64,000 bases of DNA from Trypanosoma brucei (lineage: Eukaryota): contig CM000208.1 in assembly GCA_000002445.1 (NCBI GenBank), positions 2,784,001 to 2,848,000 of the forward strand, written 5' to 3'. Shown here piece after piece: positions 15,346-43,729 of the stretch. The position numbers and the translations under genes are program-made. Under the pieces are notes generated by a model that saw only the letters and a program-made list of their open reading frames with translations, did no database searches and was not told the DNA's origin. Within the stretch, counting starts at the first letter, position 1. Each line of letters opens with the position of its first letter.

Positions 15346-15772
15346 CGTGTATGCGCTTCGCTAGTTCTTCAGGGTAACAAACTCTCTAAGGGAGAATAGG
15401 GAATAACGAAGGAAGGAAGAAGGCAGAAGAAGTGATTTACGTAGACGAAAGCGGGTGAAAGCAAAGGAAAAAAGCAAGGGCTGAGGCACAAACGCGAGAA
15501 AAAGAGAGGGGGTTTTCTTTCGAAGTTGGGAAAAGGGTGATCGTCAGGTAGGGTGATATAAAGGAGCGTTGCATTTAGCAAAGAATAACGCCCGGTTGCG
15601 ATAAGTCGTAGAGTGCCACACATCTGACGAACGGTAACCTTTCCCTCGCAGATATAAGGGCACGCACTCACCTGTTCCTTTTAACTCCTCTGGGCGGCCG
15701 TCATATAGCGGAAACTTCTGAGTTGATTGTCGTCTCAGAACTTTGTGTAACTCTTTCTTACCGTTGCGTAAA

Positions 15773-18304
15773 ATGAGTTCAACCAAAGAGCCGCTACACA
15801 TGTTCTCCTTAGGCGTAACGGAGCGCTCATGGGACGATGATGATGGAAATGCGCAGCATCAGCAGCGTCAACAACCGATGCCGCTTAAGATAGGATCTGA
15901 GCAGGGTGGTGGCGTTTACAACAGTAACGTTGCACAGCTTCAGGCCCATGGGCGGTCCGACTTTGGCGCCACGGGTGAAATTCTGGGGTCGTCATCCTAC
16001 CCGTCCAATACGCCACCACCAGGGACGGGTTCCAATGCAATGGGGTGGGTGCGTTACACTGCGATGGACTTTGAGCTTCTACTCCACGAGGGAAAACAAC
16101 CTACGGATGATATGCGCCGTTCGCAGGTCTACGCTAAGTGGTACCAGACGAAAAGGTTAACTGATGATCGCGTTCTCCCGCCCCTGACAAATCCTCGCTA
16201 TGACGCGAAGGGCGATGCGGAGGCCCCGTGGGATCCTGTGGTCCCCATGCGTATTCAAGGCCAGCAAAGCGTCGCCGGAGGCGGCGGCTCAGAGTTGGTA
16301 GGAAAAGGGGGTATTCGTATGGAGCTAGATACCAAAAACCTTCAGCAGGCACATGAGCAGCAAACGTTCAACCCGTACGCGATGTGCTTTCAACAGCAAG
16401 ACGACAATATAATGAGTCCAGGAACGCAGTTCTTTGGCGCCTATGCACCGACGCCGCTAGCAACGATGGCAACACCAAATACACTGCGTGCCTACGCTCA
16501 CTCTCGTATGGGCACACAGGTTCGCAACAATAACAACGTTAACCGCGGGGAAATTACACAAATCATGGCACCTGTGGCGGGGCAAACGCTTTACAACTCG
16601 GACTGGAATGCGACTGGCGACTTCACAGCAGCTCAAGGCATGGTGCCGAATGTCTGTCAGCAATATTACACTCAAGAACAAATGAACACCTTTGATTATT
16701 ATGCCGACCCGACGGTAGTTAATTACTACAATACGGCAACCACCAATGTGACTGACCACACGCAGATGCAGCCAGCCATAATGGCCATCGCCCCTACGGG
16801 GGATATGGGTGCATTACGTGGTCCTGCTGGTAGCGCTGGTCCAATGGCTGGTCCGAGTGGAGGCGCTACTCGAGGTGGTAGACGTAGCGGTGGTAGGGGA
16901 CGTGGAGGTAACAGCGGCAAATGGGGTTCAGGCGCGGCGAGAGGTCGTGGCACAGCCCCTCGTGAGTCGACGCAGCCGTGCTCCGAGTTGTTGGAACATT
17001 TCCGCACTGACGCGGCGAGTGGTGGAGTAAGCCAGTGGCGCATTGCTCATATTCTTAACCACGCCGTGGAGTTTGCGCAAGATCAAGAGGGTAGTCGCTT
17101 TATTCAGCGTGCAGTGGAGAGCGCCACTCATGATGAGGTGGACGCTCTCTTCCGCGAGATTTTCGAGTCTCCCCTCGAACTGGTAGTTGACGTCTTCGGT
17201 AATTATGTACTGCAGAAGCTTCTTGAGGTGGGAAATGCGCGCCAACTTGCCTACGCTGCCACGCGCTTACAGAACAATGTTGTCAATCTCACCCTTCAAA
17301 CATATGGGTGCCGTGTGATCCAAAAGTGCATTGAGGTGATGCCCCCCGAAGGCCTCGATATTATTCTCTCTGAACTTAGGGGCAATGTAGCGAAATGCAT
17401 TCAGGACCAGAACGGAAACCACGTGGTGCAGAAATGCGTGGAGGTTATTCCGCAACGTTGCGGCTTTATTGTCTCGGCGTTCTCTGGACGGGTGATGGAG
17501 TTGGCCACCCATGCGTACGGTTGCCGCGTTATTCAGTGCATTATGGATCATTGCCCCGACCAGGAGGAAGCCATTTTTTCGGAGTTGCTTGATTGCGTAG
17601 GTACTTTGGCCACAGACCAATACGGTAACTATGTCATTCAACATGTGCTGCAGCACATGAAAGATGATGAAAAGGTGGGACGCATCTTCGACGCCTTGAA
17701 GGGGAACTTCTACGAATCCAGCAAGCAGAAATTTGCATCTAATGTAATGGAGAAACTATTTGTGCGTGCTGACCCTCAGCAGCGTATGGAACTTGTCAAC
17801 ATGATGTGCTCACCTATAGGAGATGACAGTGGTGAACCTGTTGAGGTGTTGTCCTTTAAGCGTTCGTCCGCTCCCAAAAAGGAAAATGTTGAGAAGCAGC
17901 GCAACGAGTACGCCAAAAAGGGCCGTCGCGACAGAGAACGCGATCGCGAGAAGGAGAACTCTCTTGGACTTGTGGTTGAAGTGCAGTTGGCGGGAAGAGA
18001 GCCTCCCAGCATGCTTTGCCTTATGATGCAGAATCCTTTCGCTAATTACGTTGCCCAACGCGTACTTGACGCCGCTCACGTTGATCAGTACGTTTGCCTC
18101 ATCGATAATATTCAAAAGTTCCTGTTGCCCATCAGCACCTACACATATGGTGCCCCAATCGTGCAGCGTTTGGTCCGACGCGAGTTAGTAAAGGCTCCCG
18201 ACGACGTTTCGCTAAATCTCGCAGTGAGTGCTGTTTCTGCAGGGGGAAGGGGCAGTTATGGGCACCACCGCAGGGAAGCGCGCGAGCACTTCGATGCCGA
18301 GTGA
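15773..18304 (+). CDS. Pumilio/PUF-family RNA-binding protein (8 PUF repeats)
   Basis: The track start 15743 is a TTG. The first ATG is 15773 (MSSTKEP). The C-terminal half holds eight recognisable PUF repeats (FGNYVLQKLLEVG, YGCRVIQKCIEV, QNGNHVVQKCVEV, YGCRVIQCIMDH, QYGNYVIQHVLQH, FASNVMEKLF, FANYVAQRVLD). The N-terminal half is Q/G/N-rich low complexity with an RGG-like segment (GGRRSGGRGRGGNSG). Confidence 0.9.
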   Translation: MSSTKEPLHMFSLGVTERSWDDDDGNAQHQQRQQPMPLKIGSEQGGGVYNSNVAQLQAHGRSDFGATGEILGSSSYPSNTPPPGTGSNAMGWVRYTAMDFELLLHEGKQPTDDMRRSQVYAKWYQTKRLTDDRVLPPLTNPRYDAKGDAEAPWDPVVPMRIQGQQSVAGGGGSELVGKGGIRMELDTKNLQQAHEQQTFNPYAMCFQQQDDNIMSPGTQFFGAYAPTPLATMATPNTLRAYAHSRMGTQVRNNNNVNRGEITQIMAPVAGQTLYNSDWNATGDFTAAQGMVPNVCQQYYTQEQMNTFDYYADPTVVNYYNTATTNVTDHTQMQPAIMAIAPTGDMGALRGPAGSAGPMAGPSGGATRGGRRSGGRGRGGNSGKWGSGAARGRGTAPRESTQPCSELLEHFRTDAASGGVSQWRIAHILNHAVEFAQDQEGSRFIQRAVESATHDEVDALFREIFESPLELVVDVFGNYVLQKLLEVGNARQLAYAATRLQNNVVNLTLQTYGCRVIQKCIEVMPPEGLDIILSELRGNVAKCIQDQNGNHVVQKCVEVIPQRCGFIVSAFSGRVMELATHAYGCRVIQCIMDHCPDQEEAIFSELLDCVGTLATDQYGNYVIQHVLQHMKDDEKVGRIFDALKGNFYESSKQKFASNVMEKLFVRADPQQRMELVNMMCSPIGDDSGEPVEVLSFKRSSAPKKENVEKQRNEYAKKGRRDRERDREKENSLGLVVEVQLAGREPPSMLCLMMQNPFANYVAQRVLDAAHVDQYVCLIDNIQKFLLPISTYTYGAPIVQRLVRRELVKAPDDVSLNLAVSAVSAGGRGSYGHHRREAREHFDAE

Positions 18305-21269
18305 AAAAATAAAATAAAATAGTTGATAGGAGTTGTTGGACAGTCTGAGTAAATGGAGGAAAAGAGAAAAGAGAAAAGGGGAATAGTGGGTGGTGTGTGA
18401 CGAAATGTAGAGATGCATCACCGCAGTGAGAGTGACGTCGAATTGGCGTCCAATTTCCATATGAGGTCACGACGTTCCTCACAAGCATGAATAAAATGAA
18501 ATGAAGAAGGAAATTTTTTTTTTTTTAAAAAAGAAAAATCAAAACCAATATCAATTAATAAATAAATATATTGTGTCCCCTCCATTTCCCTTGGTTGTCT
18601 GCTCTTTGTTGTTTTTTTTCTTCATTTTACTATTCATTTTATTTCTCTCCATCATGTCACATAATCCCTCAAGCTGTGACCCAGAGGAGGGAAATGAATA
18701 TCAAGAGGAAAAGATATTATATTTCAACATGTTTTGATGTAGAGAAGGATTGCACGTGTGCGTACACTTGAAGGCGTTTGAAGGAAAGGGAGAAGAAAGA
18801 GGGAGGGGAGAAGGAATTGTGATGGAAAGAAAGAGAAAAAAAAAAGAAAAAAAGAAAAAAAAGGGGGGAAAAAAGAGTAAAGGAAGAGCAAAACTAAGAC
18901 ATGCAAGAAAAAATAATATTAAATGAAGAAAGAAGAAACGAAAAAAAAAATCATATTGAATAATTGAGAGGGAATGATTGTTGTTGTTGTTGTTTTTTTT
19001 TTTTGCTCCCTCTTGTATTTTGTAAAGAAAGAAAAGAAAAAGATACGCGTACATCCCCTTTTCTCTTCATTTTCTTTTTTTCTTTTTTTTTTCCCCCTTT
19101 TGTCTCCTTTCCTACGTGAAGATTAATGCAAAAAAGATATTTTGTTGTTTTTTTCACCTTTTATCCCTCCTGAACTCTCGTTACTTCTGTTATATTTTTA
19201 CGATTTATTACTTCTCACTAGTGTTTTGGATGTTGGTGTTGGTTGAGTGTTCTTTGTGTTTTGTTTTTGTTTTTTATTATTTTGTTTCGGATTCTTATTT
19301 GTTTGTTTTATTTTCAATTTTTTTTTGTTGTGATTTAGCGTAGTGACGAGTGAATGGGACGAGAAGAAATACGATAGTGAATAGGAGAGTTTTTGTTCGT
19401 TTGTTTTTTGTTTTTGTTTTTGTGAAAAAGAGAAGTAAAGAAGGAGGAACCGAGCGGAGAAAAAATGGTGGGATGAAAGACAAAGGAATAAAAAATAAAA
19501 AAATAGGAGTGATGACGATGACTATGATGATGATGAATGGTAGAGAGAATAAATTTTATTATGTTGAGGAGTGTAGTGAAAAGGTGACAAAGAATTTTTG
19601 AAAAGGAAGAGATTTTGCAGGTGGAAAAAAGGGAGACGTTTAGTTTGAAAATGAAAGTAAATTGGCTGAATGGGGAGAGGGATTTTTTTAAAAAAAAAAT
19701 TAGTAATAATAATAATAAAATCAGCGAATAGACGAGTGGAATGGCAAAATAACAATATCAACAACAACAGATTAAAAGGAAGGAAAAAAAAAAATAGAAC
19801 AGAGTAAAAGTAAAAAATGCCAACAGAGCACTACTACCACCGAAATCAAGAACAAAACAAATCAATACAGAAAAAAAAAATACGGAAGAAAGACGATGAG
19901 AAACGAGGGAATTCAGAAAAAGAAAAAAAAATAAGAGAGATAAGGAAGGGGGAGCGCACGAAGATGTGAATGAGTGACAAAGCAAATATAACCAAAAGCA
20001 GTTATTATTATTATTATTTGTTATTGTTATTGTTGTTATTGTTAGTAGACAAGAAGGATGAGTGATAACGACGTACCCATTTTTGTCTGTGTTTATGTTT
20101 GTGCTTGTGTGTTTTTTTTTCCCTGTGATTTGCGAAGAATATAAATATATAAATATATATAAGTATATATAAATAAATATATATAAATATTTACTTATAC
20201 AATATGTGTTCGTCTGTGATGTTTTTGTGTGTGTGTCTATGAGCTGCGAAAAGAATGATGAATGAAAATTTATTTCTTTTAAACACTATGTTTGAAGGAA
20301 GTAAAGGCTATAGATTGTTTGACATCGGTGGTGTGAAAGGGGACAAAAAAGCAAAGAGAGGTCAGCTTTTTGTGTTTCATTTGTTTTCTTTTTTCTCCTT
20401 TTTCTCCTTTTTTTCTTTTTTTCTTTTTTTTAAAATCACCATTGAGGTGAACAGGTAGAGGTGTTGTAGAGATATGAAAGTGGATATAACGACGCAGAGC
20501 GTGGCGTAGACAAAAATTAAAAAAAATTAAAATTAATGCAGAAGAAAGGAGGAAAAGGTGTGTGTGGCGGATCTGGAAGGGGAAGTGACGAAAAAAAAAA
20601 ATGAAAGTGAGAAGCATTCACTATCTCCATTTTTTCCTCTTTATTTTGTTGTGCCCGGGAATTTCTTTTTTTTTTTTCTTATTGGACCTTTAGGGAGGAC
20701 GTTGATGCGTTCTTCTCCAATTTTTGTCTTACTTCTTTTATTTTATTTTATTTTATTTCTTGTTTGTAGTGCTGTGCTTTTTCTTCGTCTTCTCTTTGTC
20801 TGTTTTTCTTTTTCTTTTTTTGTTTTCATGTGCTGTTTGTGCCCCTTCTTACATTTTTTTTTCTACACGCAAATCCATTTGATGGACTTGCTTCTGTGGA
20901 GCTGGGGAATCTCAGTTTCGAAATATACAATAATAATAATATTATTATTATTACATTAATATAAATATTATTATTAGTGGTAATATTTATTGTAGTGTTC
21001 GTATCTTTCCTTTTCTCCTTCCATTCCATTCCATTCCATTCCCTTTTCTTTTTCTTCTCCCTTCTCCCTTTTCCCTCTCCTTTCTTTCCTTCCTTATGTT
21101 CTTTTTCTTTTTCCTTCTGATTTTCCTCATTTTACATGTTGACCTTCCGTTGCAGAGGAGTATTTATTATGCTTGTGTGTATGTGAGGGGGGAAAAAAAG
21201 AAGTGAAAAGAAATGTGAAGGTGAAGGCCGAGTGGGATGCATCGGGACGATTGTTATATTTGCTTCATT

Positions 21270-21360
21270 ATATATTATATATTATATATATATATATATA
21301 TTATTATTATTATTATTACCATTATTGTTAATATTAATATTATTATTACTACTACTATTA
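21270..21360. repeat. compound AT-rich microsatellite ((TATAT)n, (TA)n, (ATT)n, (TAT)n)
   Basis: tatatattatatattatatatatatatatatattattattattattacc... read directly. Confidence 0.85.
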
Positions 21361-23400
21361 CTATTTGCCCGCTCCTTCTCTTCTCTTCTCTTCTTTAATT
21401 AATTTACATTTACTCTTCTCCATTCCCCACCCTAACTTTTTTTGGGCGTCGTTGCGTCTCCTCTGTGCCCCCGATGCCTAAGGTTGCTTTTTGTATTTAT
21501 TTCGCTGTTGTGTTTTCTTGTTTGTTCTTGCGCACGTGTTGGAATGTACATGATTTTCTAAATTAAGAGAGAGAGAAAGAGGAAAAACGAAATATTCGCA
21601 AATGATTATATATTAATATATATATATATATATATAAATATGTGCATGTATATGTTTTTTTTTTGGTTCTATCTACGTGTGTTCGCGTCTGTGTTTGTGT
21701 TTGTCTGTTTGTGTTTCTTTCTCTACGAGGAAAGGCAGTAACTGAAAGGAATGCGTGTAGGATACCTGGGGAAATGGAGGAGAGGGATTTTGTGTTTGTT
21801 CGCCTGTGTGGAGGAATGAATAAAAAATTCTTTTTTTTTTTAAAAAAAAGAAAGGCGACGCAAAAAGAAGAGGGACGGTCGTGGGAGAGGAAAAGAGTTA
21901 TATGAAGTGGGTCATTTAAAAGGAGCAAAAAGAAGAAAAAAAATTAAGGAAAACAAATCAAAACGAATTAAAAAAACAACAACAACAACAGGGTAAATGG
22001 ATGAAAGGGGAGGGGGGAAAAAAAAGGGGGAGAGGAGTAAAGGAGCGAAACGGGAGAAGGGGATCGGTAGAAGAATGACAGGAATATATATTTTATATAT
22101 TATTTAGCTGTGGAGAAATTGAAGTTTAGGGGTGATGAAATGAAAAATGGGAATTAGTGCGTATATATATATATGTGTGTGTGTGTGTGCGCGCGTATGT
22201 ATGGCTATTGTGCAGTACATTTACGAGTTATTTAAACATATGTATCCATCAGGAATAATTGAACATGAAGACAAACAACCAAACAAGCAAATGAAACGGA
22301 ATAGATAAATGAGAAGCAGAAGGTGAACATGATGGAGTTTTGAGTGTGTGTGTGTGTGAGTGTGTGCATTTGGTGGTGTAAGAGTAGGAGGAGGGAAGTG
22401 AGGCGTTAGTATAATGAGGAAAAAGATGAGAAAGCATTTTCTTCTTTTCTTCTTCTGAAAAAAATAAAAAGGAGAAGAGGGGGAATGTCAACTGGGAAGG
22501 GAAGACAAGGCAAAGTGCGAATCCTTCCCCGCATGCCTGTTTTATTCTTTCCTTTTCTTTTGTTTTTTAGCAATTGCTGCTGCTGAGGGCCCACTGTTTT
22601 TGTTTATTCCTTTTGTTATACGCCCTTCATCTTCTCTTTTGTTTCTCTTTCCCTCCTTCTTCACCTTCACCCTTGTTTTTTTTCTTTTTCTATTTCATTC
22701 ACTTTCCTTCTTCTATCAGTCACCATATATACACGTGTGAGTTTGTTAGCGGTACCGTCTTGTTACTACTTTTATTTGGCTGCTTTTTTTGTTTTCACTT
22801 TGTTTTTCTGTGGCATTGAACACCATTGTCAAAACCTGCCTCCAGTGATGTTCATTCATTCATTCATTCAACTATTTTATTTGATTTTATTTTTGCGCAT
22901 GTGTACTCCTGCCATCTTTCCATCCATTCCAGTCATCCTGCGTAGTTGAACTTTCCCCTCGTTCCTTTTTTTTTTCTATTTTTTTGTAAAATATTTACAT
23001 TAGTTATAAAAGTGTTGATATGTCCATTGTAGCGCACTCGTAACACCTTCCGTGCATTCAGCATTTGCCCATACATTTTAATTTGCTTATCAATATATGA
23101 ATATATAAATATATAAATATATATATATTTATGTGCATTGATAATTGCACGCGTTGGGAGAAGGAAATGCGGGGCACGTGGTGGCAACGGCAAATGATTT
23201 CGCAAGGATTGACAGCAGATATTTGTGTAATGTCCCCCCCCCAAAAAAAAATAATAGTAATAAATAAATAACAAAAAACAGAAAGAAAAAAAGAACAACA
23301 ACAAAAAGAAACAAAACCGGGTGTAGAAAAATGTACACACACAAAAAAAAAAGAAAAGAGATTATGAATTAAAGGCGTGCAGGAAATTCTTTGTAAAGAA

Positions 23401-23475
23401 CTTTTAGTTTCACTCTGCTCTCTTTTATCTCCTTACTGCTCTGAACACCATTATTTTTTATTTTTATTACTTCGT
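23401..23475 (+). promoter_or_regulatory. polypyrimidine tract plus AG upstream of small ORF 23612
   Basis: cttttagtttcactctgctctcttttatctccttactgctctgaacaccattattttttatttttattacttcgttttcttgcatctacataag. Confidence 0.4.
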
Positions 23476-37075: not shown

Positions 37076-37284
37076 TGGGTCAGTTGCACATACCTGTAGG
37101 CGGTGCCCTTGCGCCATTATATTCTTTTCCACCCAATCTCATAAACTTTTTACACAGTAGGAAACCTAAGAAACCCGCATATTCGGGTTGAACACCGGCT
37201 TTTGTTTGCCGTGATTCCTGACTCGTGCGGGACGTATTGTTGGGGAGCTTTAGTGGAAAATCGAGAGCATTAGAGTTTCTCTTA

Positions 37285-40200
37285 ATGTACACTACGACAG
37301 CCAAACAGCCCACAGTGGTGGGGGAGCGCGCTTTTTCCATGTCGGAGAAAGTTCTCACGTTCCCTTCCGCCGTAACTTCAATGACAGTTACCCCGGATCA
37401 CGTGTGGCTGGTCATGTCTGACGGAGGTGTGCAGATACGTGATGTTTCCACCACGGAGTTGGTTCACTGCTTCGCTAGCGCATCAAGACCGAGGCGTGTG
37501 GTACGTATATGGTCGATTCTCGCTGTTCCAGATCCTGCTGTGGGGTTACAGGTATGGATGGGGCTGTCCAATGGTGCCGTCGAGGTCTATGACGCACAAA
37601 CTTTCGGCGTATTGCGCCAGCAGACGAAGCACGCGGGTGGGGTATATTGTCTTGCCGAGTTTGGCGGGTACGTGTACTCAGGGAGCAGTGACTTCAAGAT
37701 TGGGCAGTGGTACGCCGCGGACGCACGCCTCGTGCGGATGCTGCACGGTCATAGCAATTATGTGCGCTGTCTTTATGCCGAGGGCAACGCCGTTGTGAGT
37801 GGGTCCGATGATTGTACGGTACGTGTATGGGATGTAGGAAGCGGTGACGCCCAGTTAACGGGACGCTTTCACGACCGCTCGGCCGTGTCTGCTCTGTGTC
37901 GTGTAGGCATTACGATGTGGTCTGGTGATGATAGTGGCCGTGTTGCGGTGTGGAGGCTCGACACATGTGAGGCTTTACACATTCTTCAGGCACATAGCGG
38001 TCGCGTTTCGTCACTGAAGAAGGTTGGATCACGTGTGTACTCTGGTGGCGCAGATGGCGTGATTGCTGTATTTGATGCGGAGGAGGGTCGTTTGCTGAGC
38101 CACGTGAATAATTACCACGGTGTTCGTGTCTCTTCTCTTGTTGTAACGTCGGAGCTGCGACGGTTTTGTATCTGGTCCTCTAGTGCGGACAAGATGATTC
38201 AGTGTTGGCACCAGGATGAGTATACTGTTATGATAGGTGATCAGGAAAGGTTTTCAGAACGTTTTTGGTACGAAACAGGTTCGACACCGTACCGTGAGTT
38301 CCGGGACAGTGTTCTGAAGCACATCGGTAACCTGCGAGAGACACTCAAGATAAGAACGTCCGACAATCCACGTTTAGTAGATATAGTGGGTTTATCTAAC
38401 TCCGCATCGACTGTGGAGGGTTTTCGGAAACGGGAAGCCATACTCAATAAGGAGCTTTCGTCTCTGGAGGGTCGCCAAGCATCACTGGAGAGTCAACTGG
38501 AGCAGTCGAAGGGAGTACTGGAGAATATAGAAAAGGAAACGAGCTTGGTGCTTGGCATTCTTCGTGCAGCTCAAGCTGAGCTTCGATCGCTGGACCCCGT
38601 TTTGCATGGCTCTCTTCTCATGTCGGCAGGAGGCGATGCGAATGGACCGCTTGCAAATATTGTTAGCACGCTATCGGGTCAACCGGCAACAATGACTAAC
38701 GTGCCGAACCCACCTGGCAACTTGGCTGTTCCGACTTCTACCGCTGCAACGACGTCTGCTTGGCCAGCAATTCCCTCAGCAGCTGCGGTGGGTAGTGGAG
38801 CTCAATACGCTGCGTATCAGCCCACTGCAATTCAGGGGCATCCCTTCTATGTAGGCACTCCAGCAACTTATACCCAACCTGCCTCGGTCTCGCACCCAGT
38901 CGCTGGCGTCAGTGGGGCGACAGTGTCCAATTTGCAGAGCCCCGTTCCCCCAGTTCAGGTGTGTGGAACGACTCCTACTGGGGTGTCAACGGCACAAATT
39001 CCTGGTGGCCAGGGTGTGGCCTTTACGGCATTACAACCGGCCGGCACCATGGCTGTGGGAGGACCAACAGGTTCAACAAATGCTGTTCAACAAGTTCCCA
39101 CAGCTGCTACCACACCCAGCGGCACGACTGCCGCAGCAATGGTTGGCGCACTACCGCCTGGTCAGAGCACAGCCACCACATCAGCCCAACCACTCGGAAC
39201 CGCGGCTGCGGGAGCAATGGCTGGCGCACTACCGCCTGGTCAGAGCATAGCCACCACATCAGCCCAACCACTCGGAACCGCGGCTGCGGGAGCAATGGCT
39301 GGCGCACTACCGCCTGGTCAGAGCATAGCCACCACATCAGCCCAACCACTCGGAACCGCGGCTGCAGGAGCAATGGCTGGCGCACTACCGCCTGGTCAGA
39401 GCATAGCCACCACATCAGCCCAACCACTCGGAACCGCGGCTGCGGGAACGATGGCTGGCGCACTACCGCCTGGTCAGAGCATAGCCACCACATCAGCCCA
39501 ACCACTCGGAACCGCGGCTGCGGGAACGATGGCTGGCGCACTACCGCCTGGTCAGAGCATAGCCACCACATCAGCCCAACCACTCGGAACCGCGGCTGCA
39601 GGAGCAATGGCTGGCGCACTACCGCCTGGTCAGAGCATAGCCACCACATCAGCCCAACCACCTAGCACCTTGGGTGTAGGAGGGTCAACAGGGGCTCCAA
39701 CATTTGGACAAAACTTTGCTGTGTCGCTGCAACCTTCGACTGCCACCACCTCCGTTGGGCCGGCTGGGTTAACGTCTTCTGCGGCAAACATGGCAGTTTC
39801 TTCTCAGCCGTTGGGCGCCTCAACTGTCGTTGATGCTTCGGGGCCACTACACAGCGGCCAAAGCCTGACTGGGTCGGCGCATCCGCTCTCTACTCAGGCT
39901 TCCGGAAAACTGATGGGAACGGCATCGGCTGGTGAAAGTGTAACTACGCCCTTTCAACCATTGGGTGCCACTGCAAATGGTAGCTCTTTGGTGTTCACAA
40001 CCGCTGGTCAGAGTTTAACAGCTATACCACAATCTCTTGGGGTCGCATCTACCGGGCAGTCAACGGCACAAATTCCTGGTGGCCAGGGTGTGGCCTTTAC
40101 GGCGTTACAACCGGCTGGCACCATGGCTGTGGGAGGACCAACAGGTTCAACAAATGCTGTTCAACAAGTTCCCACAGCTGCTACCACACCCAGCGGCACG

Positions 40201-40602
40201 ACTGCCGCAGCAATGGCTGGCGCACTACCGCCTGGTCAGAGCATAGCCACCACATCAGCCCAACCACTCGGAACCGCGGCTGCAGGAGGGCCAGCAGGGA
40301 AACCCCCTGTTGAGCAAGATTTTTTATCCACGAAGCGCGTCGTTCCACCCGTTTCTCGTTGTGGAACCGCGCCCCCGTCCAAACACGTCCATTTCGAGCA
40401 GGTAGCTGAAGCTACCACCAGTGGCGGTGTGGTCTACAGGGGCGTAGAATGGACCAATAAAAACGTCGGCAATTATATCCAGCGCCGTTACTACGGGGCG
40501 GAACCAAGTCTTCGGACCCCGGCTCTTGAAAAGCGCAGGAGATTGCAAGGTCGTATGCCGGACGTTAAGTTAGAGCCGTTCAAAAGGAAAGACGAGGGAT
40601 GA
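37285..40602 (+). CDS. WD40-repeat protein with coiled-coil and long A/T/G/P/Q-rich repetitive C-terminal region
   Basis: The track start 37225 is a GTG. The first ATG is 37285, with a second at 37339. The N-terminal 330 aa hold classic WD repeats (GHSNYVRCLYAEGNAVVSGSDDCTVRVWDV). A coiled-coil lies at about residues 400-450. The remainder is low complexity, including a 78-nt tandem array and a duplicated 230-nt block. Short conserved C-terminal tail (VVYRGVEWTNKNVGNYIQRRYYG). Confidence 0.8.
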   Translation: MYTTTAKQPTVVGERAFSMSEKVLTFPSAVTSMTVTPDHVWLVMSDGGVQIRDVSTTELVHCFASASRPRRVVRIWSILAVPDPAVGLQVWMGLSNGAVEVYDAQTFGVLRQQTKHAGGVYCLAEFGGYVYSGSSDFKIGQWYAADARLVRMLHGHSNYVRCLYAEGNAVVSGSDDCTVRVWDVGSGDAQLTGRFHDRSAVSALCRVGITMWSGDDSGRVAVWRLDTCEALHILQAHSGRVSSLKKVGSRVYSGGADGVIAVFDAEEGRLLSHVNNYHGVRVSSLVVTSELRRFCIWSSSADKMIQCWHQDEYTVMIGDQERFSERFWYETGSTPYREFRDSVLKHIGNLRETLKIRTSDNPRLVDIVGLSNSASTVEGFRKREAILNKELSSLEGRQASLESQLEQSKGVLENIEKETSLVLGILRAAQAELRSLDPVLHGSLLMSAGGDANGPLANIVSTLSGQPATMTNVPNPPGNLAVPTSTAATTSAWPAIPSAAAVGSGAQYAAYQPTAIQGHPFYVGTPATYTQPASVSHPVAGVSGATVSNLQSPVPPVQVCGTTPTGVSTAQIPGGQGVAFTALQPAGTMAVGGPTGSTNAVQQVPTAATTPSGTTAAAMVGALPPGQSTATTSAQPLGTAAAGAMAGALPPGQSIATTSAQPLGTAAAGAMAGALPPGQSIATTSAQPLGTAAAGAMAGALPPGQSIATTSAQPLGTAAAGTMAGALPPGQSIATTSAQPLGTAAAGTMAGALPPGQSIATTSAQPLGTAAAGAMAGALPPGQSIATTSAQPPSTLGVGGSTGAPTFGQNFAVSLQPSTATTSVGPAGLTSSAANMAVSSQPLGASTVVDASGPLHSGQSLTGSAHPLSTQASGKLMGTASAGESVTTPFQPLGATANGSSLVFTTAGQSLTAIPQSLGVASTGQSTAQIPGGQGVAFTALQPAGTMAVGGPTGSTNAVQQVPTAATTPSGTTAAAMAGALPPGQSIATTSAQPLGTAAAGGPAGKPPVEQDFLSTKRVVPPVSRCGTAPPSKHVHFEQVAEATTSGGVVYRGVEWTNKNVGNYIQRRYYGAEPSLRTPALEKRRRLQGRMPDVKLEPFKRKDEG
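38986..39215 (+). repeat. copy 1 of a roughly 230-nt intragenic duplication (copy 2 at 40060-40285, about 97% identical)
   Basis: tcaacggcacaaattcctggtggccagggtgtggcctttacggc...cagcccaaccactcggaaccgcggctgc occurs twice. It encodes STAQIPGGQGVAFTALQPAGTMAVGGPTGSTNAVQQVPTAATTPSGTTAAAM(V/A)GALPPGQS... Confidence 0.85.
39125..39660 (+). repeat. 78-nt tandem repeat, about 6.9 copies, encoding AMAGALPPGQSIATTSAQPLGTAAAG
   Basis: Near-identical 26-aa units with A/T variation at unit position 1 and one S-T/I change, read directly from sequence and translation. The minus-strand and alternate-frame ORFs here (39107..39661 and 38961..39665) are artefacts of the repeat. Confidence 0.9.
40060..40285 (+). 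repeat. copy 2 of the intragenic duplication
   Basis: See 38986-39215. Confidence 0.85.
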
Positions 40603-40860: not shown

Positions 40861-42461
40861 ATGAGAAGCGCGCAGTTCCCACTTGCAGCAATACCGCCCC
40901 CACCACCATCAGCAGCAGTCCCACAACCACCAATGGCAGCAGTCCCGCAACCACCAATGGCAGCAGTCCCGCAACCTCCAATGGCAACAGTCCCGCAACC
41001 ACCAATGGCAGCAGTCCCACAACCACCATCAGCAGCAGTCCCACAACCACCAATGGCAGCAGTCCCGCAACCACCAATGGCAGCAGTCCCACAACCACCA
41101 TCAGCAGCAGTCCCGCAACCACCAATGGCAGCAGTCCCGCAACCACCAATGGCAGCAGTCCCGCAACCTCCAATGGCAGCAGTCCCGCAACCTCCAATGG
41201 CAACAGTCCCGCAACCACCAAGGCAGCAGTCCCACAACCGCCAATGGCAGCAGTCCCACAACCACCATTGGCAGCAGTCCCACAACCACCAATGGCAGCA
41301 GTCCCACAACCTCCAATGGCAGCAGTCCCACAACCACCAATGGCAGCAGTCCCACAACCACCAATGGCAGCAGTCCCACAACCACCAATGGCAGCAGTCC
41401 CACAACCACCATCAGCAGCAGTCCCACAACCACCATCAGCAGCAGTCCCGCAACCACCAATGGCAGCAGTCCCGCAACCACCAATGGCAGCAGTCCCACA
41501 ACCACCATCAGCAGCAGTCCCACAACCACCAATGGCAGCAGTCCCACAACCACCAATGGCAGCAGTCCCACAACCTCCAATGGCAGCAGTCCCACAACCA
41601 CCAATGGCAGCAGTCCCACAACCTCCAATGGCAGCAGTCCCACAACCACCAATGGCAGCAGTCCCACAACCACCAATGGCAGCAGTCCCGCAACCTCCAA
41701 TGGCAGCAGTCCCGCAACCTCCAATGGCAGCAGTCCCGCAACCTCCAATGGCAGCAGTCCCACAACCACCAAAGGCAGCAGTCCCACAACCACCAATGGC
41801 AGCAGTCCCGCAACCACCAATGGCAGCAGCGCGACAGTCACCGCTGGTGGTGGCCCCGGCGTGCCCACCAACTTCCGATGGGCTAAATGCTACTGATGGC
41901 ACGGGTAGTGGATTATCAAAAAGTCTTGTAATACCATCTGCTGCCGGGGGGTTGGCAGTATCATTGTCCGAGACTCAGCAAACTCGTGGATACGGAAGAG
42001 AAACGGAGGAGATTTTTTCAGGTAACCACCCCACTAGCAACCCCAATTTACTGTCTCATTCACCTTTGCTTGCAGGTCTTCCTTCCTGGAACATCCCAAG
42101 TGCTTCAAGTTCTACTTGGGCGGGGTCGACAGTAACTCAAGTCTTTGTGCCCCAGCTGGATGCTGTCCCAGCGCGCAGCGTCATCTTACCGACTGCGGTG
42201 TGGTTTGACGACAGACTAGAGCGTGTAGTTGTTCCTCGAGTGAATGCCACTTCTTCGGTGCCAAAGGGATTACAAGAGGAAGGTTCTAGGCAGCGGTTAA
42301 AGCCGTCATTCAAACGAGTGAAGGACAAATACCTCTGGCGGCTGCCACCGTCGAAAGAGGGTATAGCAAGTGAGTTGTGGCGTGGAGTTTACTGGAAGCA
42401 TGTTGATGTGCATCGTTACGTTTCCAGGCGGTATTTTGGGGGACCGCCACCGGTTGAATAA
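40861..42461 (+). CDS. repetitive proline/alanine-rich protein, (PPMAAVPQ)n about 39 copies plus a unique 200-aa C-terminal domain. The reading frame is broken by a 1-nt deletion near nt 41220
   Basis: ATG 40861 (MRSAQFPLAAIPPPPPSAAVPQ) follows a polyY/AG context and reads (PPMAAVPQ)n until about 41220, where one unit is 23 nt (ccaccaa-ggcagcag, lacking the T of ATG) and shifts the frame. The ORF 41244..42461 continues the same repeat in the next frame into a unique C-terminus ending VYWKHVDVHRYVSRRYFGGPP. It is either a sequencing or assembly error in the array or a genuine pseudogenising frameshift. Confidence 0.5.
40896..41832 (+). repeat. 24-nt tandem repeat array (about 39 units; consensus ccaccaatggcagcagtccc[a/g]caa)
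   Basis: Read directly. Variants include cct/cca, atg to tca (Ser), atg to aag (Lys), and one 23-nt unit. All six frames are open across it, which produces the many overlapping artefactual ORFs on both strands. Confidence 0.95.
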
Positions 42462-42796: not shown

Positions 42797-43729
42797 ATGC
42801 TGCGCCACACATCACGGAACAATGCTTTGCACGCATTTGTTCGCTCACCGCATTACCGAACTATTCCGAGCGCTGGACCAAATGGGATTGTTGTCAACCG
42901 AGATATGCTCGTTCACCAGTTCAGAGACTTCTACAAAACACTTCAACATTGCTCTCTTGTCGACAAAGTCCATTTGATGTCCGAGAGACCCTCGGTAGAA
43001 GCACTACGGGTAGCGGACCAAATGGTTTCCATCGGTGCCACATTTTTAGAGATGCCACTGACAGGTATGGAACATCGCGCGACAGAATTTATGGAGTCAA
43101 TGCGGTATGTTCGTGGTGCTGGTGGACCCTCTACTCTTGCCTCGTACTTGCAAGATACGGAGAATTGCCGGTGTAATAGCGGCGATGTGGTGTGTTTACC
43201 GAATGGCATAGCAGTTGGCCACGGTCCGAGAACAAACGCAGTGGCTCATACTACGCTGAAACAATTGTTCGAAGTGAAAGATGACCAATTTTCTTTTGAT
43301 GTCTTCACTTTAGAACAGGAGGGTGATGCGCCACCGCTTGGGGACTATTTCGGTTTTGCTGGGAGCAACGTATTACTCACTTGGAAAGATGAGCACGGTT
43401 TACTTGCTGTAGATCAATACCAACAGAAACAGCCCCACACGGAGATGAATGTAGTTTATCTTGAACCTGGTTGCCATTTTTTATCTTTCTATGGTGTCGA
43501 CCACACGATAGATGTTTTAGTTCAGAAGGGCTACGAACGCTCAATGGACAGCATTGCTGCTGCGGGTTTGAATCCTATTCCTGTTCAGTGGTCGGAGATG
43601 GACAAACTTGGGATATCGATGAGGGCCGCAGTTCTTCCACTTAAATTCTTCAAGGCGAATGTTGGTGGCATGTTGTCGAGGAACAAGAGTCGTGGAGCCC
43701 GATGGCAGACGCATCAACTGCAGAAATAA
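42797..43729 (+). CDS. amidinotransferase-superfamily protein, DDAH-like (possible pseudoenzyme)
   Basis: NSGDVVCLPNGIAVGHGPRTNAVAHTTLKQLF resembles the DDAH core DGGDV..G..fvGlSkRTN as I remember it. GCHFLSF resembles the His-containing GLHLKSF. The C-terminal region (EMDKLGISMRAAVLPL) aligns to the Cys-nucleophile region (ELEKVDGLLTCCSVLI) but has no Cys. Confidence 0.5.
   Translation: MLRHTSRNNALHAFVRSPHYRTIPSAGPNGIVVNRDMLVHQFRDFYKTLQHCSLVDKVHLMSERPSVEALRVADQMVSIGATFLEMPLTGMEHRATEFMESMRYVRGAGGPSTLASYLQDTENCRCNSGDVVCLPNGIAVGHGPRTNAVAHTTLKQLFEVKDDQFSFDVFTLEQEGDAPPLGDYFGFAGSNVLLTWKDEHGLLAVDQYQQKQPHTEMNVVYLEPGCHFLSFYGVDHTIDVLVQKGYERSMDSIAAAGLNPIPVQWSEMDKLGISMRAAVLPLKFFKANVGGMLSRNKSRGARWQTHQLQK

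Follow-up and report, generated by a model that had tools for sequence, protein, structure and literature searches.

RESC5, an RNA-editing scaffold protein of Trypanosoma brucei, as a DDAH-like pseudoenzyme that has lost both catalytic residues

The open reading frame (ORF) at positions 42797-43729 (+ strand) of the window, i.e. the whole 64-kb stretch of Trypanosoma brucei DNA analysed here, is a complete coding sequence of 310 amino acids plus stop codon; an in-frame stop closely precedes its ATG. From residue 1 to residue 310 its product matches the PDB chains 8fnc_5 and 8fn4_5 with 100% identity, and its residues 4-286 are likewise identical to those in the crystal entry 8dpk_A (E ~1e-215). 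The matched chains bear the names 'Mitochondrial RNA binding protein' and 'RNA-editing substrate-binding complex protein 5 (RESC5)' in the PDB, the 90%-identity cluster of the protein is labelled 'mitochondrial RNA binding protein' as well as 'RNA-editing substrate-binding complex', and the domain PF26170 is assigned to 61 out of 61 homologues in a precomputed table. The ORF encodes T. brucei RESC5, whose gene is also known as MRB11870, GRBC5 and Tb927.10.11870 (Table 1 in PMC12936278). It is the same protein, with no difference, as the RESC5 of PDB entries 8DPK, 8FN4, 8FN6, 8FNC, 8FNF, 8FNI and 8FNK and of PF26170, and nothing was found that contradicts this identity. The first-pass annotation of this locus had described a protein with the fold of dimethylarginine dimethylaminohydrolase (DDAH), and had not recognised it as RESC5, a core scaffold subunit of the RNA-editing machinery, which is its established function.

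All ORFs of at least 200 amino acids in the window lie on the + strand, save those within or overlapping tandem-repeat tracts, an arrangement that fits a trypanosomatid polycistronic unit. Directly upstream of the RESC5 gene, a 24-bp tandem repeat (40912-41829; 38 copies, 93% match) encodes MAAVPQPP octapeptides in the ORF 41244-42461; since this array is open in several frames and on both strands, the frame and start of the ORF are putative when read from the sequence alone. Another tandem repeat, of 78 bp (39128-39661; 6.8 copies, 97% match), gives rise to 26-residue units in the C-terminal part of a 1125-aa ORF (37225-40602) with N-terminal WD40 repeats. The otherwise continuous + strand array also includes, just downstream of the ORF of a PUF-repeat protein (15743-18304), a 6.8-kb AT-rich stretch (18300-25100) with a GC content of 0.32-0.37 versus ~0.5 elsewhere. 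This stretch, of exceptional length for a UTR or intergenic region, comprises short low-complexity repeats only, with no ORF of at least 200 amino acids and no Rfam match; the Rfam scan of the window as a whole returned no match either.

Single-sequence scans against DDAH models give weak hints at best. Two NCBIfam DDAH equivalogs match RESC5 at E 0.002, with 17 bits against cut-offs of 300-340, and in a single-sequence scan of the PDB the Pseudomonas enzyme (PaDDAH, 3bpb) is reached at E 1.8. Pfam PF19420 (DDAH_eukar) and PF02274 (ADI) do not match RESC5 even at E <= 10, and the gathering score is not attained. This null result was set aside as evidence on family membership, on which it is uninformative because RESC5 is too diverged for these two models and the copy of Pfam used was devoid of PF26170.

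The profile of an alignment of 32 full-length RESC5 orthologues (hereafter A1) retrieves bovine and human DDAH1 chains from the PDB at E 0.04-0.15 (HMMER) and, from 1.84 billion representative proteins, seven DDAH proteins at E 2e-7 to 8e-4, all seven being above the Pfam thresholds for DDAH_eukar and/or ADI and carrying the canonical ALHLKS and DGALTCCSV motifs. When A1 was compared by hhalign with a second alignment (A3), made of six Pfam-verified DDAH-type proteins drawn from those seven matches, a probability of 99.2% and an E-value of 2.4e-19 were obtained over 236 columns. Along the same line, an AlphaFold2 model of RESC5 computed from A1 (mean pLDDT 77) matches by Foldseek, among PDB structures, the crystal structure 8DPK (TM 0.95, rmsd 2.1 A), followed by about 20 DDAH chains (E 3e-15 to 1e-12, TM 0.7-0.8), the best DDAH1 match having E 3e-15 and TM 0.70-0.80, and, below these, by SxtG, ArgZ, AGAT and arginine deiminase. 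The five-module alpha/beta propeller fold, a feature of the GME superfamily, is present in RESC5.

By four independent tests, RESC5 is homologous to DDAH. The DDAH, or amidinotransferase, fold proposed by the first-pass annotation is borne out by the hhalign comparison and by the predicted structure, which matches both DDAH1 and, lower, arginine deiminase; as to superfamily searches, those by hhalign and by deep profile found DDAH at high significance, and the one by Pfam PF02274 found nothing. Whether RESC5 and DDAH owe their likeness to convergence or to a shared ancestor is left open in the crystal paper (PMC9980740); the sequence statistics given here favour common ancestry over convergence.

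Residues 128-147, SGDVVCLPNGIAVGHGPRTN, align to the GDV...RTN core of DDAH in HMMER, hhalign and MAFFT, which is the register originally proposed by eye. Residues 129-147, GDVVCLPNGIAVGHGPRTN (43181-43237, + strand), aligned to GGDVL...VG.S.RTN, make up the DDAH 'GGD...RTN' core, with Asp130 and Arg145 kept; G129, D130, R145, T146 and N147 are invariant among the 32 orthologues, and Arg145 is equated with Arg145 of DDAH in PMC9980740. Further along, the D-A-L-H-L-K-S stretch of DDAH aligns on D177-A-P-P180-L-G-D of RESC5 (HMMER, hhalign and MAFFT L-INS-i), the position of the catalytic His being taken by Pro180 (codon CCG, 43334-43336, + strand). The sole invariant Cys of DDAH is aligned to Ala277 (codon GCC, 43625-43627, + strand) by MAFFT and by ungapped extension of the hhalign alignment. 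The same equivalences, His to Pro180 and Cys to Ala277, are reported for the overlay of the 1.95 A RESC5 crystal structure on bovine DDAH 2CI6 (PMC9980740).

At the Cys motif, greedy and global hhalign alignments bring up M275 or V279, neither of which is a Cys, in an unstable register of near-zero confidence that was rejected as evidence, and a C-terminal sub-profile (residues 222-290, 20 sequences) searched against the PDB recovered RESC5 and spurious designed repeat proteins only, and no DDAH. As the profile register is soft here, different methods yielding M275, A277 or V279, the assignment of Ala277 depends mainly on the crystal overlay and on MAFFT. Cys residues occur in RESC5 only at positions 52, 124, 126, 133 and 226, with none in 227-310, and therefore no register near the motif gives a thiol; the C-terminal segment ISMRAAVLPL (residues 273-282; 43613-43642, + strand) is free of Cys, as was first noticed by inspection. 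A Cys of the CRCNSGDVVC segment was considered as a substitute nucleophile and rejected, for all alignments have Cys124, Cys126 and Cys133 flanking the GGD motif, and none puts any RESC5 Cys at the nucleophile position; Cys133 is variable among the 32 orthologues. Two features of active DDAHs, the Cys in the C-terminal G-x-L-T/S-C motif and the His in the L-H-L-K/D motif, are absent in RESC5. Both catalytic residues, not one, are thus lost, the crystal overlay agreeing with the alignments, and with both of them lost the hydrolysis of methylarginine would be impossible for RESC5.

The first-pass annotation had paired GCHFLSF with the DDAH His motif GLHLKSF, and had concluded that the catalytic His is kept. 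The pairing is out of register by about 47 residues: GCHFLSF (residues 225-231; 43469-43489, + strand) lies 47 residues beyond the RESC5 segment aligned to the DDAH His motif, PGCHF aligns by hhalign with the 'g..aN.v' region of DDAH, and His227 falls on an invariant DDAH Asn. The likeness probably stems from a neighbouring pseudo-symmetric module of the propeller. The earlier observation is hence confirmed in part, being right on DDAH homology and on the absent Cys and wrong on the His, whose position is occupied by Pro180 in three alignment methods and in the published overlay. Its reading of the protein as a pseudoenzyme is correct and agrees with the descriptions of RESC5 in PMC9980740 and PMC12936278, but it had already been published for this exact protein. 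Although not a catalytic-His motif, GCHFLSF is conserved, and PGCHF belongs to the best-conserved parts of RESC5: G225, C226 and F228 are invariant, and His227 is found in 28 of the 32 orthologues, the other four having Asn or Ser. The available part of PMC9980740 contains no discussion of a role for PGCHF.

The 32 orthologues, mostly environmental or assembly sequences, are 34-74% identical to the T. brucei protein. Position 180 is Pro in 27 of them and Ala in five, never His; position 277 is Ser in 24, Ala in seven and Arg in one, never Cys (0/32), so the nucleophile is missing family-wide, a check that had been proposed at the outset. In every RESC5 orthologue and paralogue examined, bodonid-like sequences included, position 180 holds a residue other than His, and position 277 one other than Cys. 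Six deep-branching bodonid-like orthologues (P0050, P0052, P0053, P0054, P0056 and P0059) read SMRSCVLL at the residues equivalent to 275-281, with a Cys278 directly after the nucleophile-equivalent position that might be left over from the 'TCC' motif of an ancestral DDAH; their His-equivalent position is Ala in five and Pro in P0050. Some public records (JGI; P0030, P0031 and P0041) name RESC5 orthologues 'N-dimethylarginine dimethylaminohydrolase', which is likely a misannotation, since the proteins of those JGI records are without both catalytic residues.

Identity, DDAH homology, fold and family-wide loss of both catalytic residues come from the present analysis, whereas complex membership, RNA contacts (second-hand, via reviews), knock-down phenotype and binding assays are taken from the literature. 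RESC5 was described as monomeric, with a DDAH fold and without the catalytic Cys and His, by Salinas et al. 2023 (PMC9980740), and a 2026 review calls it a 'dimethylarginine dimethylaminohydrolase ... pseudoenzyme' (PMC12936278). In the cryo-EM work summarised in the same review, a charged RESC5-RESC6 crevice encloses the gRNA 3' end in RESC-A (Liu et al. 2023), the U-tail is held by RESC5, RESC6 and RESC10 in the editing-competent complex, and RESC5 stays in a proposed disassembly intermediate; its knock-down leads to broad editing defects (PMC12936278). All of RESC-A, -B and -C contain RESC5, and it is from RESC5/6 that the duplex of gRNA and mRNA projects (PMC11381364); the chain is included in the cryo-EM entries 8FN4 (RESC-A), 8FNI (RESC-B) and 8FNC (RESC-C).

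Almost certainly, then, RESC5 is a DDAH-derived dead enzyme that acts as an RNA-editing scaffold. This nuclear-encoded mitochondrial protein of T. brucei derives from a DDAH of the amidinotransferase superfamily, keeping the propeller fold and Glu/Asp68, Asp74, Arg94, Asp130 and Arg145, and having Ala277 in place of the Cys nucleophile and Pro180 in place of the general acid/base His, whereby methylarginine would no longer be hydrolysed. As a scaffold it pairs with the HEAT-like RESC6, the charged crevice between the two holding the gRNA 3' end (U-tail region), and the RESC5/6 pair is common to all three cryo-EM states, namely RESC-A, which stabilises gRNA, RESC-B, which is competent for editing, and RESC-C. 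Other pseudoenzymes occur in RESC, i.e. RESC1/2, with dead RNA triphosphatase tunnels, and RESC14, a dead phytanoyl-CoA dioxygenase (PMC12936278). Their folds are unrelated to that of RESC5, and the shared theme is the recruitment of an enzyme fold as a non-catalytic RNA- or protein-binding module. A difference lies in ligands, for RESC2 holds the 5' triphosphate of the gRNA in its dead active-site tunnel, and the RESC5 pocket is not known to hold any ligand.

RESC5 has in common with DDAH (human and bovine DDAH1, Pseudomonas PaDDAH) the propeller fold, the GGD...RTN core and a cavity at the active-site position, and among the features of active DDAHs it displays the acidic and Arg residues for the alpha-amino and carboxylate groups of the substrate, plus the Asp of GGD. 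The substrate-binding residues Asp74 and Arg94 (residues 74-94; 43016-43078, + strand), which line the pocket and correspond to Asp78 and Arg98 of DDAH (PMC9980740), are kept together with Asp130 and Arg145, and these four are invariant in the 32 orthologues, position 68 being Glu or Asp. Conversely, Ala277 and Pro180 replace the catalytic Cys and His, Arg71 protrudes into the RESC5 pocket and loops replace some of the pocket helices; functionally, an RNA-editing scaffold without substrate or product binding is opposed to a hydrolase. In thermal shift assays RESC5 bound neither dimethylarginine nor citrulline up to 1 mM, and a 'restored' R71A-P180H-A277C mutant likewise failed to bind them (PMC9980740). 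The authors suggested that the conserved positive pocket might be a binding site for RNA or for partner proteins that contain methylarginine (PMC9980740).

The conservation of the pocket residues, which are invariant all the way from trypanosomes to bodonid-like sequences, suggests selection on the pocket. One might speculate, while considering it rather improbable, that it is a working ligand site and not a relic, for methylarginine of a partner or for a nucleotide of the gRNA 3' tail, and that the paralogues treated below, some of them with a Cys beside the nucleophile position, may represent another kinetoplastid protein whose functions are related and likewise derived from DDAH. A narrower proposal, doubtful in its own right, is that the pocket acts as a reader, binding methylated Arg of the partners RESC13/TbRGG2, RESC8 or RESC12 and thereby tuning the dynamics of RESC assembly, as an addition to the scaffold role and not as a substitute for it. 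In its favour, the four invariant residues are mostly kept in the paralogues as well, methylarginine occurs in RESC13, RESC8 and RESC12, CavityPlus gives the cavity at the DDAH site as the only significant pocket of RESC5, and the idea is the crystal authors' own (PMC9980740). However, free dimethylarginine and citrulline remain unbound up to 1 mM, Arg71 is predicted to clash with a ligand in a pocket whose architecture is unlike that of DDAH, and the positive charge could suit RNA instead, as the authors point out (PMC9980740); moreover, the cryo-EM summaries in PMC12936278 and PMC11381364 report no partner Arg in the pocket.

The first-pass annotation had offered a methylarginine-binding regulator or a different chemistry as possible functions. 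The first of these, as a binder of free methylarginine, is contradicted by the assays mentioned above, and the methylarginine idea survives, speculatively, solely as a reader of protein-bound methylarginine. In its original version, a DDAH with His and without Cys serving as a small-molecule methylarginine sensor or regulator, it was built on the by-eye similarity of GCHFLSF to GLHLKSF and on the kept binding residues, nothing more; the His register already refutes it, Pro180 and not His227 being at that position, and it is hardly credible given the lack of substrate or product binding and the statement, in PMC9980740, that no DDAH homologues were found in kinetoplastids. A different chemistry finds no support either.

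Cys-to-Ser variants of DDAH (C249S, C274S) are catalytically inactive. According to PDB entry titles, such variants have been crystallised in the ligand-bound state (1H70, C249S with citrulline; 3P8P, C274S). That RESC5 is still an enzyme, working through Cys226/His227 of PGCHF or through the Ser277 of most orthologues, is very unlikely, for despite the invariant Cys226, a His227 in 28/32, a Ser277 in 24/32 and a conserved pocket, no RESC5 activity has been reported, residue 277 is Ala and not Ser in T. brucei, His227 gives way to Asn or Ser in four orthologues, and the established function needs no catalysis.

A dead, DDAH-derived scaffold therefore stays the preferred reading, and RESC5 may be regarded as a clear case of an enzyme fold reused as the scaffold of an RNA machine. 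This story is already published (crystal structure in 2023, cryo-EM in 2023, reviews up to 2026), and no new biology is added to it here. The small additions are a sequence-level case for homology of RESC5 and DDAH over convergence, as discussed above with respect to the crystal paper; the observation that position 277 is Ser, not Ala, in most of the sampled orthologues; a caution that 'N-dimethylarginine dimethylaminohydrolase' names on RESC5 orthologues are misleading; and the indication of a conserved, apparently unstudied paralogue of RESC5.

The latter belongs to a second kinetoplastid family with a RESC5-type domain, distinct from RESC5, which was found by the deep profile search. Its members are 350-510 aa long, are ~32% identical to RESC5 in the DDAH-like domain and carry PF26170. 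Their N-terminal leader is longer than that of RESC5, and their C-terminal tail (GAPLxAQ...PVYQPPPRYxPPMHR), absent from RESC5, is conserved. They occur in T. cruzi, T. vivax, T. grayi, T. rangeli, T. conorhini and T. melophagium, as well as in Leishmania, Leptomonas, Novymonas, Angomonas, Bodo saltans and both Phytomonas isolates (sequence set P0060, P0062-P0076 and P0094-P0125, with P0066 and P0108 from Phytomonas); examples are T. cruzi C3747_59g6 (P0095), T. vivax ERJ75_001322100 (P0098), Phytomonas CCW65229.1 and a Bodo saltans hypothetical protein (P0109). The divergent matches of 400-480 aa were at one point considered as the RESC5 of distant lineages, a reading rejected since Phytomonas has a normal RESC5 plus one such protein: the presence in Phytomonas Hart1 of both RESC5 (P0007) and a second protein (P0108) makes the second family one of paralogues.

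The family is apparently uncharacterised. The literature search found no described function, its profile found no structure of the family among those solved, the searches returned no named T. brucei copy, and the 64-kb window contains no gene for it. The idea that RESC7, which RESC-C is said to include (PMC11381364), is a RESC5 paralogue was set aside without being dismissed, the paralogue profile having matched RESC5 chains only among solved structures.

Compared with RESC5, the paralogues have the same DDAH-like domain and likewise no His at the 180-equivalent position, and differ in length, leader, tail and in the Cys that many of them have at the 278- or 279-equivalent position (MAFFT), where they read MRSVCLI and the like. 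Their records are named merely 'hypothetical' or 'RESC5 domain-containing', and the profile of the family matches human DDAH1 at E 1.7e-9.
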